64,000 nucleotides of DNA, from positions 25,155-89,154 of the forward strand of contig JANPCO010000131.1 of the NCBI GenBank assembly GCA_031430995.1, in the 5' to 3' direction. The translations under genes and the position numbers were made by a program. The DNA comes from Sphingomonadales bacterium. GTDB taxonomy: Bacteria; Pseudomonadota; Alphaproteobacteria; Sphingomonadales; Sphingomonadaceae. How positions within the stretch are numbered: position 1 is the first letter of the stretch; every line of letters begins with the position of its first letter. The notes under the pieces were generated by a model. The model worked only from the letters and a program-made list of their open reading frames with translations, made no database searches and had not been told where the DNA came from. Below, one piece after another: positions 28,531 through 38,376 of this stretch.

Positions 28531-30357
28531 ATGAAGAGTTTGATTTCGGCGCTGGCGCTTTCGGTATCGCTAAGCTTGACTGCGCCTGCCTTTGCCCAAA
28601 ACACGCCCACCGCGATCAGCCCAACTGCGGCTGAAGCGGATAAATTCGTCGCCGACGCTGAAAAGGCACTGGGTGATTTCAGCGTTTACAATGCGCAGGT
28701 GCAGTGGATCAACAACACCTATATCACTGACGACACTGATGCCGTTGCGGCCCGCGTTGGCGCGCAAGGGACCGAGCTCTCGGTCAATTATGCCGTGGCA
28801 GCGGCCAAATATGCCGCCATCCCCGGCTTGTCTTATGATACCAAGCGCAAGCTGGATATATTACGCGGCGGGCTCACGTTGCCAGCCCCAACAACAGACG
28901 GCGCGGCCAAAGCGCTCAACGATATCTCGACACGGCTCAACTCAGCCTACGGCAAAGGCAAAGGCACGCTGAAAGGTGTGGCTATCGTTGGCAATGATAT
29001 CGAAGCTGAAATGGGCACCAACCGCAACCCGGCTGAACTGGCCGAAATGTGGAAAAGCTGGCACACCAATGTCGGCGCACCGATGCGCGACGATTACGCC
29101 GAACTGGTTGGCATCGCGAACAAAGGCGCAGTGGAACTGGGTTATAAGGATGTCGGCGCGATGTGGCGGTCTGGCTATGATATGCCTGCCGATGATTTTG
29201 CCAAACTCACCGACAAGTTGTGGGGCCAGGTCAAGCCGCTCTATGATCAGCTCCACTGCTACACGCGCGGCAAGCTGAATGAGAAATACGGCGACGCTAT
29301 TCAGGCCAAAACCGGCCCCATTCGCGCTGATTTACTTGGTAATATGTGGGCGCAGGAATGGGGCGATATTTATGATATTGTTGCCCCCAAAGGCGCTGGC
29401 GATATTGGCTATGACATTGGTGAGCTTCTCAAGGCCAAGGGCAAAACCGAACTGGATATGGTGCACGCGGGCGAAGGCTTTTTTTCCTCACTCGGATTTG
29501 ATCCGCTGCCCAAAAGCTTTTACGCGCGGTCGCAATTCTTGAAGCCCCGCGACCGCGAAGTCGTCTGCCACGCTTCGGCGTGGGATCTGGATAATGTTGA
29601 CGACCTTCGCATCAAAATGTGCATCAAGGTCGATACGGGAAATTTCGTGACCATTCACCATGAACTGGGCCATAACTATTATCAGCGCGCCTATAACAAG
29701 CAGTCGAACCTTTATCTGAACGGCGCGAATGATGGCTTTCATGAAGCCATTGGTGATGCCATCGCGCTGGCGATCACGCCGGATTATCTTGTGAAGATCG
29801 GGCTGCTCGACGCCAGTAAAGTACCCGGCGCGGACAAGGACACAGGCCTGTTACTGCGCCAGGCGATGGACAAAGTCGCATTCCTGCCGTTCGGCTTGCT
29901 CGTTGATAAATGGCGCTGGGGTGTGTTCGACGGCTCGATCCCGAAAACCAGCTATAACAAAGGCTGGACGGACCTGCGCCTGCAATATCAAGGCATCACG
30001 CCGCCCGTGCCGCGCAGTGAAGCGGATTTTGACGCAGGGGCGAAATATCATATTCCCGGCAACACACCCTACACCCGCTATTTTCTGGCGCGCATCCTTC
30101 AGTTCCAGTTCTACAAGGCTGCGTGCGACATTGCCGGCTGGAAAGGCCCGCTTCACCGCTGCACCTTCTATGGCAATAAAGCAGTCGGCAAGCGGTTAGA
30201 CGCCATGCTCGCCATGGGCGCATCAAAGCCCTGGCCCGATGCTTTGCAAGCCTTCACAGGCAAGCGCGAAATGGACGGAACAGCGATGATTGCTTATTTC
30301 AAGCCGCTGATGACCTTCCTTGCCAAGCAGAATCAAGGCAAAACCTGCGGATGGTGA
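28531..30357 (+). CDS. Secreted M2-family peptidyl-dipeptidase (angiotensin-converting-enzyme homologue)
   Basis: It has a signal peptide, an HHELGH zinc motif with a downstream HEAIGD glutamate ligand, and the length of a single ACE domain. Confidence 0.85.
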   Translation: MKSLISALALSVSLSLTAPAFAQNTPTAISPTAAEADKFVADAEKALGDFSVYNAQVQWINNTYITDDTDAVAARVGAQGTELSVNYAVAAAKYAAIPGLSYDTKRKLDILRGGLTLPAPTTDGAAKALNDISTRLNSAYGKGKGTLKGVAIVGNDIEAEMGTNRNPAELAEMWKSWHTNVGAPMRDDYAELVGIANKGAVELGYKDVGAMWRSGYDMPADDFAKLTDKLWGQVKPLYDQLHCYTRGKLNEKYGDAIQAKTGPIRADLLGNMWAQEWGDIYDIVAPKGAGDIGYDIGELLKAKGKTELDMVHAGEGFFSSLGFDPLPKSFYARSQFLKPRDREVVCHASAWDLDNVDDLRIKMCIKVDTGNFVTIHHELGHNYYQRAYNKQSNLYLNGANDGFHEAIGDAIALAITPDYLVKIGLLDASKVPGADKDTGLLLRQAMDKVAFLPFGLLVDKWRWGVFDGSIPKTSYNKGWTDLRLQYQGITPPVPRSEADFDAGAKYHIPGNTPYTRYFLARILQFQFYKAACDIAGWKGPLHRCTFYGNKAVGKRLDAMLAMGASKPWPDALQAFTGKREMDGTAMIAYFKPLMTFLAKQNQGKTCGW

Positions 30358-34235: not shown

Positions 34236-34378
34236 CGGTGTTTACTTGTCGCCGTGCGAGTTGTGGTCAAGCCTCTCCTCATCGATTTCGTCCAATTCAC
34301 TTGACGGCGGCGCGCTATAGGCGTGTATCAGAATGAAACGGGTCGCGCTGTTTTGACTGGCCAGGGGGCATAATAATA

Positions 34379-35698
34379 ATGATCGAATATCGTGACGCGC
34401 GCCGAGGCGCAGCAGGCGTCGGTGCGGCTGTTTTGGGCGCTGTGGCGGGGGTCTCTGCGCCTTTTGCGGTGCAGGCCCAAGAAAGCGAAGCGGCGGCGCT
34501 TGACGCGCTGATTGACGGGGCAGCGACGCCGGATCAGGCGTTGGCACTGGCGCGGCAACAAGCGCAAAGCGGCGATTTGACAGGGGCGGCTTCAACGTTG
34601 GAGCGCGCTTTGCTCACCAATCCGAATGCCCATGATGTGCGGCTCTTTTATGCCGGTCTGCTTTGCCAGTTGGATGACGGCCAAGGCGCGCGGGTGGAAG
34701 TGACCAAGCTGGACAAGCAAGCCATTGATGACGCGGCGTGGAACGCGGCCAATACGGCCTGCGGTGGCGCGCTGGTTCGTCCCGCTGCGCCAAAAGCCGG
34801 GGCCGCCACAGGCTTTGCCGGTGAAGCTTATGCAGGCGTGGCGTTTGACGGTGATGCATTGGGGCCCCTGATCATCCAGATTGATTTGCCAGGTGTGGCA
34901 ACGCCCAGCAAATCGGGCCTTGGCATCATCGCGGGTGTGCGCGGGGCCTACAGGTCGCCATCCTATACCGACGGCGGCGGGCTTTATGCAGGCGGGGGTA
35001 TCCGCCTGAAACATAGCGTTGATGGGCCGGATCAGAAATATCTGCTCACTGATCTGCGGGTTGGTTTTGGGCGACAATCCGAACGCACGGACTATGCATT
35101 CGGGGCCGTCGTTCGCCACACCCACTTGCTCGGCAATGCTTACGGCACGGACTATGGCGGTCAAGCTGAACTGGGCGTCAAAGCAGGCAATGGCGGCCGG
35201 ATCGTGCTGCGCGGCGAAGCCGTTTATCAGGATTATGCGACCATCGGGCTGGGACCGCGTGCCAACGGATGGCGATTTGACCTGTCGGCGACTTATGTGA
35301 AGCAAATTTCCGTAAACAGCCTGTTTATCGCTGGCGCGGCGCTGGAAGTGAAAGACGCAAGATCACGCGCGCTTGGCTATACCGGTGCACGGATGTTTGC
35401 GGCCTATCAGGCGAATATTGGCGACAGCGGCCATTATTTCAATCTCTCCTCCACGTTGAGGTTCATCAATTTCAAGAACAAGCCGCCTGTGCAGGACAGG
35501 AAAGACACCCGCGTCACTGCGCGCGGGGCTTACGGCCTGCCGCTTGGGGCCAGCGGCTTTAAGCTAGAGGGCGCAGTCAGCTACACATCGCGTGCCATTA
35601 GCGGCAAAGCCACGGTTTCGCCGCCGCCGCTGTTTGCGACCAAACTTGCCAATTATAACAGCGTCGGCGCGGAACTCCGCCTGATCTTCAAATTTTAA
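34379..35698 (+). CDS. Outer-membrane protein: signal peptide, short TPR-like region, and a beta-barrel of about 290 aa (possibly DUF560/Slam-like)
   Basis: It has an AVQA-QE cleavage-like site and a TPR-like helix pair (GDLTGAASTLERALLTNPNAHDVRLFYAGLL). The remainder shows alternating amphipathic strands and ends in LIFKF (terminal Phe). Confidence 0.55.
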   Translation: MIEYRDARRGAAGVGAAVLGAVAGVSAPFAVQAQESEAAALDALIDGAATPDQALALARQQAQSGDLTGAASTLERALLTNPNAHDVRLFYAGLLCQLDDGQGARVEVTKLDKQAIDDAAWNAANTACGGALVRPAAPKAGAATGFAGEAYAGVAFDGDALGPLIIQIDLPGVATPSKSGLGIIAGVRGAYRSPSYTDGGGLYAGGGIRLKHSVDGPDQKYLLTDLRVGFGRQSERTDYAFGAVVRHTHLLGNAYGTDYGGQAELGVKAGNGGRIVLRGEAVYQDYATIGLGPRANGWRFDLSATYVKQISVNSLFIAGAALEVKDARSRALGYTGARMFAAYQANIGDSGHYFNLSSTLRFINFKNKPPVQDRKDTRVTARGAYGLPLGASGFKLEGAVSYTSRAISGKATVSPPPLFATKLANYNSVGAELRLIFKF

Positions 35699-35712
35699 GC
35701 GGAGTCGGGGAA

Positions 35713-36579
35713 ATGACCATGACACGAACAGCCAAATTCGCCCTCGCTTTCCTGCTGGCGGGAGGTGCAACCACCGCATTTGCCCAGTCTAAAGTGGTGG
35801 GTGTCAATGCTGCCATCCGCAACAGCGTGCAGATCAAGACTGGTGCGGCTGCGTTCCGCCGCGCTGTCCTTAAAGAACGCGTTTCCATCGGCGATGATAT
35901 CCAGACCGCAGGGGCAAGCGTTCTTCAAGTGCTGCTGCTTGACCGTACGACCTTCACTGTCGGGGCCAATGCACGGGTGCGGATTGACCGCTTCGTTTAC
36001 GATTCAGCGCGCAGTGCCAGCAGTGTGGGTGCATCAGTCGCCAAAGGCGCATTCCGGTTCATGTCCGGAAAGCCCACGCGCGGGATGCCGGGGCAAAGTG
36101 CAGTGAACACACCAGTGGGCTCCATCGGTATTCGCGGGACCATTTTCGAAGGGGCTGTTGGCGCGGATGCAGTGCGGATCGCGCGCGGAGAACAAGCTGT
36201 CGGCTCTGTCAGTGGCGACGCAGAAAAAGCCACGCTCATCGTGCTGCGCGGCCCTGGGGCAGCCACACAGGGCGATGAGAAGGCCGGAGCCATTGATGTG
36301 AGCGTCGATGGCCGTGTGGTCGCTGTAGCGTCGCCTGGCATGGCGCTATACGTGCCGGGTCCGGGTATGGCCCCTATCGGGCCGTTCATGATTTCAGACG
36401 CTGGCTTGTCTGCACTGCACGAACTGCTCCGGTCCACACCCCGTCGCCGGGCGCAGTCTGCCACTCTGTCGCTGGAAGGCAATCCTGTCGTGGATCAGAT
36501 ATTGGAATGCAGCGGCGGGGCCGATCCTGTTCAGGGGCCGACCACACCGGTCATTTCTTCGGGCTGCGGCGCGCGGTGA
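35713..36579 (+). CDS. Secreted FecR-domain protein
   Basis: It has a signal peptide (AFA-QS). The FecR-like core reads [23 protein letters not shown]...KGAFRFMSG...[16 protein letters not shown]. Confidence 0.65.
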
Positions 36580-36969: not shown

Positions 36970-38376
36970 TTACTCAGCCGGAGTTGCTTCAAGCGCTCCG
37001 GCTTTGTTACGTTTGGTGTTCGGCCAATTCTTCGGCGTCAGAATGCGTGTGATTGGGCCGTAATCCGCCATCCACGCGGCATAATCACGATATTCGACAT
37101 TGGCAGACAGATGCCGTTCTTCGGTTTTGGCGCGCCAGAAATAAACGCCGGATACCATCGCCAATATCGCGGTGTTGCGCACCATATCCGTCAAGCTGCC
37201 CGTAGTGGCCAGGAACGGCATGGCAGACAGCCACCAGAACGCATTTTTCGACAGATACGCTGGATGTTTTGTAAACGCATAGGGTCCGTGGGTCAGGATG
37301 CCGCGGTCCGTCAGGTTAGAAAAGCGCAGGCCAAAGACAATCGTCGCCCAGGCGTAGATGCCCGTCAGGATGACCAGAACTGCACCAACGCCGTAAATCA
37401 GCACTGGGTGATCGGCCAGCCAGTAACTCCATTCAGCGGTGCCAGGATGATAGTTGAGCGGGCCATTATCGCCCATCATGATGAACGGCGGGTAGCAGAT
37501 CAGCGCAGCGGCCCAGCCTGCGGCATAAGGCGTGGCAGACCGGATATGAGCGTCAAGCGGCTTCATAGTCAGCAAATAGCCGACCGTGGCAAAGGCCACA
37601 TCCAGCACGAACATCAGATTGACCAGCCAGATGATCCAGGCCGCAGGGTTCCCGGCCATGGCCGCAAAGTCCGCGCCGACAACGCTTTCGAAATTGGGCG
37701 GCACAATGGAAAGCATGAAAGCCAGAAAAAAGCCCTTCACGGCCCAGCTGCGAAAATGGGCGAAAATCACCTGGCTTTCCCAGCCGTCCGTTCCCATTAA
37801 CAGCGCACCAAGATGCCAGGCGCCGTCGCGGGGTTCCTTCAACCGCGAATCAATCCACAAGATATAGACAATAGACAACACAAACGCTGGGGCCGCCATC
37901 ACCTTGTAAAAATCCATCGCGATCACGTAATTGCCGCGCCAGTAAAAGCGAAAGATGCAGTAAAGCGCCGCAATTAGTGCCCATGTTGCCCACAGGCCAG
38001 CCAGCTTTGTCACGGATGTGTCGATTGTTTCGCGCCACGGCTTGGCCGCGCGGTCAAAGTCCAGCCCTGTTGTCGGGTTGCGGTGAACCTTGTCGACAAG
38101 CAACGACCACAGCACCATCGGCACGCCACAGAAAATGACATTGACCGCGGATGACATCGGGCCATCCAGCTTGCCCGCACTGGCAATTTCAGGGTTATTC
38201 AGAAGGTCAGCCAGCCAGAAGCGCACTGGATTGATGTCGAACGTCAACGCAAAGGTCATCCAAACCGCGACGCCTGCCAACCCAGCCATGCCCACCCCAG
38301 TTGACACTGCCGAAGGCGGACGGGGCGGGCGTGTTTCTGGCGAGGCACTCGGGGCAGATTTACTCATGCCTTTCAC
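36970..38376 (-). CDS. Polytopic membrane protein with a C-terminal ICMT/PEMT-like methyltransferase domain
   Basis: The stretch THGPYAFTKHPAYLSKNAFWW plus EERHL resembles the isoprenylcysteine carboxyl / phospholipid methyltransferase fold. The N-terminal ~280 aa are uncharacterised TM helices. Confidence 0.55.
   Translation of the reverse strand: MKGMSKSAPSASPETRPPRPPSAVSTGVGMAGLAGVAVWMTFALTFDINPVRFWLADLLNNPEIASAGKLDGPMSSAVNVIFCGVPMVLWSLLVDKVHRNPTTGLDFDRAAKPWRETIDTSVTKLAGLWATWALIAALYCIFRFYWRGNYVIAMDFYKVMAAPAFVLSIVYILWIDSRLKEPRDGAWHLGALLMGTDGWESQVIFAHFRSWAVKGFFLAFMLSIVPPNFESVVGADFAAMAGNPAAWIIWLVNLMFVLDVAFATVGYLLTMKPLDAHIRSATPYAAGWAAALICYPPFIMMGDNGPLNYHPGTAEWSYWLADHPVLIYGVGAVLVILTGIYAWATIVFGLRFSNLTDRGILTHGPYAFTKHPAYLSKNAFWWLSAMPFLATTGSLTDMVRNTAILAMVSGVYFWRAKTEERHLSANVEYRDYAAWMADYGPITRILTPKNWPNTKRNKAGALEATPAE

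Follow-up and report, generated by a model that had tools for sequence, protein, structure and literature searches.

Four kinds of described system come closest to the locus reported here, a pair of adjacent genes on the forward strand of a 64-kb stretch of DNA from a Sphingomonadales bacterium (the window, i.e., all 64,000 nt that were analyzed). Gene A encodes an outer-membrane barrel protein, and gene B encodes a secreted FecR-domain protein. The first kind is the type 11 secretion system (T11SS), of which Neisseria Slam1, Xenorhabdus NilB, and HrpB are examples. Its defining architecture is a periplasmic tetratricopeptide repeat (TPR) domain of ~140 aa plus a 14-strand barrel (PMC8406197), and its cargo, which may be lipidated or soluble, joins an effector part that varies at the N-terminus to a TbpB- or fHbp-type barrel of eight strands at the C-terminus (PMC12282271). 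According to the T11SS literature searched, the barrels are numerous, only one sequence cluster has verified cargo, and most are without a known partner. The second kind is represented by FecA-FecR-FecI and PupB-PupR, in which a FecR-fold periplasmic domain and an outer-membrane beta-barrel signal inward.

The third kind comprises gene clusters around CHASE2 receptors. CHASE2 is a widespread sensor domain to which no ligand or input mechanism was assigned in the literature searched. A 2022 survey mentioned in passing that, in Campylobacterota, CHASE2 adenylate cyclases are encoded in clusters together with a TPR protein, a FecR-domain protein, and a phosphodiesterase (PMC9239204). Operons of a LysM-FecR protein plus a CHASE2 histidine kinase were reported from Burkholderia (BiofilmReg) and Pseudomonas aeruginosa (PA4035 type; PMC5192318). 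In Caulobacter, the genes CCNA_00635-00637, which encode a CHASE2 receptor, a hypothetical protein, and a TPR protein, were co-regulated (PMC11724286). The fourth kind is known from Sinorhizobium meliloti, where NsrA, an outer-membrane barrel, is encoded beside a CHASE2 adenylate cyclase and is required to perceive an external protein signal through the CHASE2 cyclases CyaK, CyaD1, and CyaD2 (PMC7529298, PMC13001267). NsrA is the only experimental precedent for outer-membrane-to-CHASE2 signaling; unlike A, it is ~1200 aa long, with the barrel in its C-terminal half. A T11SS-like barrel was recognized in none of these reports. Those on Campylobacterota and Burkholderia were neighborhood remarks without a mechanism, and the TPR protein was recognized neither as an outer-membrane barrel nor as T11SS-like.

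Here, we propose that A, in the outer membrane, and B, in the periplasm, belong to a conserved envelope signaling module that also includes a CHASE2 cyclase, and that the window carries a reduced copy of it; we rate the chance that this is correct at about even. Apparently, no earlier description connects the T11SS family with FecR-fold proteins and CHASE2 receptors. The T11SS literature searched never mentioned FecR, CHASE2, or cyclases, in agreement with an earlier sequence-only reading of this DNA, which knew of no described FecR-domain cargo of a Slam-family barrel. The two open reading frames (ORFs) of that reading, their coordinates, the 14-nt gap between them, and the LIFKF end of A were recovered exactly. 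The two genes are as follows.

34379-35698, + strand: gene A, a 439-aa divergent DUF560/SlipAM (type 11 secretion family) outer-membrane protein (ORF; homology by hhalign)
35713-36579, + strand: gene B, a 288-aa secreted stand-alone FecR-domain protein, short form (ORF; FecR E 2e-7)

Conservation of the A-B Pair

A total of 110 loci encoding an A homologue were collected from genomes, metagenomes (scanned with alignment A5), and plasmids, and co-occurrence was counted in the 85 unique loci that had enough downstream sequence. A FecR gene adjoined A in 84 of these 85 loci, so the pairing seen by the sequence-only reading in a single genome recurred almost throughout. B was on the same strand and directly downstream of A in 81 of the 84 loci, with a median gap of 12 nt and with 77% of gaps at ≤30 nt. 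The association spanned Sphingomonadales, Caulobacterales, Rhodobacterales, Rhodospirillales, Hyphomicrobiales, Omnitrophota, and Elusimicrobiota. The pair was kept in unrelated contexts whose flanking genes varied from locus to locus, which indicated that A and B travel as a unit.

The single locus without a detectable FecR gene (L090, 2954-7377) offered ~3 kb of sequence downstream of its A homologue. In the Ensifer locus (L112; 5444-5758, - strand), the A homologue was cut to a 104-aa TPR protein without a barrel, whose neighbors were still a FecR protein of 220 aa and a CHASE2 cyclase with an MBL-fold hydrolase.

A CHASE2 Cyclase as the Third Partner

A gene for a CHASE2-domain class III nucleotide cyclase (C) adjoined A-B in 24 of the 40 loci with full flanks, and the other 16 fully evaluable loci had no adjacent cyclase. 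The genes were ordered A-B-C on one strand, with C divergent, with C convergent, or as C-B-A. Adjacent CHASE2 cyclases occurred across Alphaproteobacteria, Omnitrophota, and other lineages. On plasmid pAMI5 of Paracoccus aminophilus, the RefSeq annotation listed a "tetratricopeptide repeat protein," a "FecR domain-containing protein," and an "adenylate/guanylate cyclase" in that order. The sequence-only reading had offered an envelope sensing unit as its fallback, and it is this fallback that the regular cyclase partner favors.

The third gene sets the module apart from described T11SS loci, in which iron- or heme-uptake genes take that place. It also differs from the Fec and Pup systems, because a 14-strand TPR-barrel replaces the 22-strand transducer and a nucleotide cyclase forms the output in those loci that have one. 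The Campylobacterota cluster shows the same gene association and, going by its description, very likely represents this module. The Burkholderia and P. aeruginosa operons share the FecR-CHASE2 association, whereas their LysM domain and kinase output are different.

FecR-CHASE2 pairs without a barrel were also found, in Ruegeria and Methylosinus. Together with the Burkholderia and Pseudomonas operons, they identified B as the common element, that is, the one shared between the outer-membrane protein and the inner-membrane receptor. The barrel-less pair on a plasmid of Ruegeria sp. AD91A (L114, 1380-8109) lay beside a TonB-ExbB-ExbD cluster.

Some modules had further neighbors. A patatin-like phospholipase with a cyclic nucleotide (cNMP)-binding domain beside the module on pAMI5 (L111, 212-2038) is a candidate cNMP effector, as are a cNMP-binding Ser/Thr kinase and a HisKA-REC-cyclase protein beside another module (L028, 662-5681). 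On plasmid p1 of Shinella sp. H4-D48 (L113, 1-14073), the TPR/FecR/CHASE2-cyclase module was located directly beside an NHLP-family bacteriocin export system, and the same was true of the Ensifer sp. PDNC004 plasmid (L112, 1-5447). In both Rhizobiaceae plasmids, the export system consisted of a C39-peptidase ABC transporter and a secretion protein, and the sensor module and peptide export may be functionally linked there.

Protein A, a Divergent Member of the T11SS Superfamily

Protein A comprises three parts.

34379-34477, + strand: signal peptide, aa 1-33, with predicted cleavage AVQA/QE (read from sequence)
34481-34759, + strand: periplasmic TPR-like helical domain, aa 35-127 (TPR_19 E 5e-7; six helices in the model)
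34811-35695, + strand: 14-stranded beta-barrel, aa 145-439 (AlphaFold2 model, Foldseek, invariant Phe439)

The AlphaFold2 (AF2) model, built on 25 homologues, had a mean pLDDT of 80.8 and fell below 50 at residues 1-36. It contained six helices (35-127) followed by exactly 14 strands (145-438), the number expected of a Slam-like barrel. Pfam TPR_19 covered residues 63-124. Among the 25 homologues, A33 and Q34 were invariant, and so was the terminal Phe (F439) of the C-terminus ...LRLIFKF. The Slam-like architecture claimed earlier for A (signal peptide, TPR domain, and 14-strand barrel) was therefore upheld.

When the model was compared with the PDB by Foldseek, 14-strand barrels ranked first (CymA E 5e-9, OmpG, FadL), and TPR-barrel exporters were listed as well. 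The PDB matches included no Slam structure, so the fold of A is compatible with Slam and not diagnostic of it. Because BcsC, PelB, PgaA, and general porins were also in the Foldseek list, A might be taken for an ordinary porin or a BcsC/PgaA/PelB-type polysaccharide-export barrel, in which case its adjacency to B would be meaningless. That reading is close to refuted, on strand number, gene context, and homology alike. The barrels of such polysaccharide exporters are built from 16-18 strands, against 14 in A, and their TPR arrays are long. No glycosyltransferase or polysaccharide-synthesis genes were found near the pair. Adjacency to B held in nearly every evaluable locus across phyla, and A is homologous to SlipAM-positive proteins.

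This homology was reached through intermediate members of the family. PF04575 (SlipAM/DUF560) gave no direct match to protein A even at E ≤ 1, and only 2 of 25 close homologues gave a match, at E about 0.12. Pfam, NCBIfam, and PDB sequence searches with A returned TPR matches only, and tblastn of A against plasmids gave no match. TPR_Slam produced sub-threshold matches in relatives. An exhaustive profile search then yielded 1097 representatives of the A family (50% clustering), the more distant of which matched DUF2860, TPR_Slam, and SlipAM. Four of them passed the SlipAM gathering score of 22 (P0342, 46.6 bits; P0300, 28.8; P0303, 26.6; P0341, 22.2). In hhalign, the A family matched these four proteins with a probability of 99.9% (E 5e-34) over 380 columns covering both the TPR domain and the barrel, and it matched an intermediate branch with a probability of 100% (E 3e-48) over 400 columns. 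On the strength of these profile-profile matches, A is assigned to the DUF560/T11SS superfamily as a divergent member. The PF04575 search proposed in the sequence-only reading thus failed for A itself and succeeded at the level of its family.

Protein A resembles the Slam/T11SS proteins in its signal peptide, its periplasmic TPR domain (~100-140 aa), its 14-strand barrel, its position directly beside a Sec-exported partner, and its family-level homology to proteins that pass PF04575. It differs from them in being itself below PF04575 detection, and its family reaches Omnitrophota and Elusimicrobiota, outside Proteobacteria. A large and deeply branching set of T11SS-like barrels is tied here to one dedicated partner class, the FecR-fold proteins, and through these to CHASE2 cyclases. 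T11SS gains a candidate class of cargo or partners from this, and its family no longer ends with Proteobacteria.

Protein B and the Cargo Question

The short B of the window has the following parts.

35713-35784, + strand: type I signal peptide, aa 1-24, with predicted cleavage AFA/QS and no lipobox Cys (read by eye, ...TAFA/QS)
35794-36432, + strand: conserved two-subdomain core, aa 28-240, with the FecR/PupR periplasmic signaling-domain fold (AF2, Foldseek)
36433-36576, + strand: disordered, poorly conserved C-terminal tail, aa 241-288 (pLDDT below 50; alignments A2/A4)

Pfam FecR (PF04773) matched residues 61-154, and more than 1000 homologues of B were found. The FecR and TPR profile searches that the sequence-only reading had proposed were thus positive for B and A, respectively. 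In the AF2 model, the pLDDT of the core was mostly above 85. Foldseek matched the core to anti-sigma factors of the FecR type, whose periplasmic domains it resembled over ~170 residues, namely to 4m0n (E 3.6e-5) and to the cell-surface-signaling domain of PupR (6ovk_R, E 1.2e-3); the PupR domain was crystallized as a complex. This C-terminal signaling domain is what B has in common with the Fec and Pup systems. However, B is a free secreted protein with neither a cytoplasmic N-terminal anti-sigma domain nor a transmembrane helix, its conserved core beginning at residue 28. The description of B as a stand-alone FecR-domain protein with a signal peptide therefore stands.

The lengths of B homologues were bimodal (272-358 and 423-721 aa). 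The long form consisted of the core, a low-complexity linker, and an extra C-terminal domain. The core of the window B aligned best to the N-terminal part of the long form (34-38% identity), so it looks like a long form minus linker and domain. The extreme C-termini of two long forms resembled T11SS cargo. Paracoccus B (655 aa) matched TbpB_B_D (E 2.3e-4) and FHBP_C (E 2.3e-3), and Shinella B (849 aa) matched TbpB_B_D (E 0.019) and FHBP_C (E 2.1e-3). A profile of these two C-terminal domains found 19 PDB sequences ahead of any unrelated one, all of them Neisseria fHbp or NHBA (E 0.003 to 0.07), and the next match had E 4.6. Based on these profile matches, the Paracoccus and Shinella long forms are assigned the T11SS-cargo architecture, and the partner in these modules ends in a TbpB/fHbp-type barrel just as the cargo of Slam does.

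The same cannot be said of the window. Its B has no C-terminal TbpB/fHbp-type barrel, residues 241-288 are disordered, Foldseek gave no significant match to fHbp or TbpB, and the TbpB-like profile matched none of the window ORFs. As a short form without this barrel, the window B falls outside T11SS cargo as defined above, and its FecR fold differs from all of the cargo architectures described so far, roughly ten in number. The earlier reading had regarded B as possible Slam cargo. This part of it was not supported for the window B, whereas the Slam-like call for A and the dedicated pairing were retained.

A true type 11 secretion pair was nevertheless considered, in which A translocates the short B across the outer membrane, B either acts at the surface as a receptor or adhesin or leaves the cell, and the CHASE2 link is indirect or absent. 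The characterized members of the DUF560 superfamily are translocons and are usually encoded beside their cargo (PMC8406197, PMC12282271), and the barrel at the end of the Paracoccus and Shinella long forms agrees with such a role. By NCBIfam, B also weakly resembled a Leptospira protein named surface adhesin Lsa33 (E 0.004). Barrel-bearing cargo is rare with the T11SS barrels of marine cluster 3, so a non-canonical cargo is conceivable. Against these points stand the missing barrel and the disordered tail of the window B. Moreover, conservation in the B family lies in the N-terminal FecR core and not in the C-terminus, which is the reverse of the pattern in T11SS cargo, and the B-CHASE2 pairs without a barrel imply a periplasmic role of the core. 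We therefore regard a secretion pair as rather improbable here, although it deserves to be kept in view.

A second C-terminal domain, of ~150 aa and conserved, was present in 52 of 60 long tails (A6 type; e.g., L034, 5022-5531). Its profile at first matched hemophilin (E 0.023 and 0.084), while 2 of the 52 members matched NCBIfam slam_lipo. A split-half control reproduced the matches in one half only, and spurious matches (a nanobody, Rab GTPases) were as strong as those to hemophilin and slam_lipo. The domain was therefore not taken as a cargo barrel. Pfam gave nothing, no Pfam, NCBIfam, or PDB match rose above noise, and hhalign against the TbpB-like barrel of Paracoccus and Shinella gave a probability of 0.3%.

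In the tail of the short B, a small motif, NP[IV][IV]D..[LF].E (window 36481-36510, B residues 257-266), was kept despite its variable surroundings. P258 was invariant and D261 was present in >90% of the sequences, and the motif may serve in docking. The pair Cys266/Cys284 occurred in the closest relatives only. Omnitrophota-type loci (L026, L031-L046, L057, L066, L073; e.g., L026, 7446-9738) carried FecR paralogues in tandem, two or three per locus. As a rule, a long paralogue bearing the C-terminal domain came first, short ones followed, and the CHASE2 cyclase came last.

A Proposed Three-Tier Signaling Module

The observations described above cover the protein folds, the homology, the structure of the operon, and the association of the three genes. 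From them, we infer the contacts between A and B and between B and CHASE2 as well as the direction of signaling. Three proteins would make up the full module: A, the TPR-barrel of the T11SS family; B, the secreted protein with the FecR fold; and C, a CHASE2 class III nucleotide cyclase of the inner membrane. A would be an outer-membrane protein whose TPR domain faces the periplasm. B would be exported by Sec and act as the hub. By analogy with FecR-type domains, which dock on outer-membrane transducers, its FecR/PupR-like core may dock on A, and the same core would touch the receptor at its CHASE2 domain, which is periplasmic. In this way, an outer-membrane event could be converted into the synthesis of cAMP or cGMP. 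The window would hold a reduced, alphaproteobacterial version in which B has dropped the linker and the C-terminal domain. Lacking both, the window B most likely stays periplasmic. The receptor gene, whose existence in this genome we infer, would presumably lie elsewhere.

Several points weigh against this proposal. Most Sphingomonadales and Caulobacteraceae loci were without an adjacent cyclase, and the window was among them. Although the TPR and FecR genes known from the CHASE2 clusters are adjacent here, the CHASE2-cyclase profile had no match anywhere in the 64 kb. The kinship of A indicates protein translocation rather than signaling. Since certain homologues of B do end in a genuine T11SS-cargo barrel, export of B may be part of the relay or may replace it, at least in those lineages.

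The first of these points could also mean that the pair works in the envelope by itself, without a CHASE2 receptor, for instance in outer-membrane monitoring or maintenance or in signaling through another inner-membrane partner, the cyclase having been lost in the lineage. The 16 loci without an adjacent cyclase, which include nearly all those of Sphingomonadales, Caulobacteraceae, and Marivibrio, would fit this, as would the conservation of the pair amid housekeeping genes. However, some Sphingomonadales and Brevundimonas loci, in which A and B have close homologues at 37-62% identity, still had the cyclase next to the pair, and receptors are often encoded apart from their accessory proteins. 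A stand-alone unit is accordingly held to be unlikely.

The signaling module may also take a more specific form, in which a secretion system has been re-used as a sensor. The T11SS-type barrel would expose or thread the C-terminal domain of B at the cell surface, and the FecR core would gate the CHASE2 cyclase from the periplasm. A long flexible linker (Pro/Thr or Gly/Ser rich, ~80-250 aa) would keep the core periplasmic. The tail-less B of the window would then be a derived form, and the barrel or its TPR domain would supply the signal. We consider this form speculative and give it little probability. If true, such re-use would amount to a trans-envelope tether and a long-sought input route for CHASE2 domains.

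The signaling module as a whole turns the question of CHASE2 input into a hypothesis on three proteins that can be put to the test. Among tractable organisms, Paracoccus aminophilus (pAMI5), Shinella, and possibly Caulobacter (CCNA_00635-00637) may carry this cluster.

Gene Neighborhood of the Window

The window locus was present in freshwater-sediment metagenomes, and the closest genome was a Sphingomonadales metagenome-assembled genome (90% identity for A). Short sequence features around the two genes were as follows.

35699-35712: A-B spacer of 14 nt, containing GGAG 8 nt before the ATG of B
35702-35705, + strand: GGAG ribosome-binding site for B (sequence)
34353-34380, + strand: promoter-like TTGACT-16 nt-AATAAT with its 3' end on the ATG of gene A (consensus scan; weak evidence)

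The sigma-70-like consensus scan found three sites against 1.2 expected, and the best one ended on the ATG of A. With such an expectation, the match is no proof of function. It would imply a leaderless or very short-leader mRNA, unless it arose by chance.

The genes within ~6 kb of the pair were housekeeping genes, named by Pfam unless read from the translation. Pfam identified an M2 peptidase, a GNAT protein, an extensin-like protein, a LOG-like protein, a tadA-like deaminase, L28, a chorismate mutase, and a prolyl oligopeptidase, while L7/L12 (rplL) and L10 (rplJ) were named from the translation only. Unlike in the Fec and Pup systems, neither an ECF sigma factor nor a TonB-dependent receptor or transducer was detected by the Pfam scan of the nine ORFs at 28.5-40.9 kb, and rplJ and rplL were no candidates by translation. 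The sequence-only reading had likewise seen none nearby.

Downstream of the pair, a 468-aa multi-pass membrane protein (36970-38376, - strand) had no Pfam match at E ≤ 1e-5, and by eye its C-terminal part was like isoprenylcysteine or phospholipid methyltransferases. Upstream, a full-length M2 peptidase of the angiotensin-converting-enzyme type was encoded at 28531-30357 (+ strand), with a signal peptide and a Peptidase_M2 match of E 6e-211.

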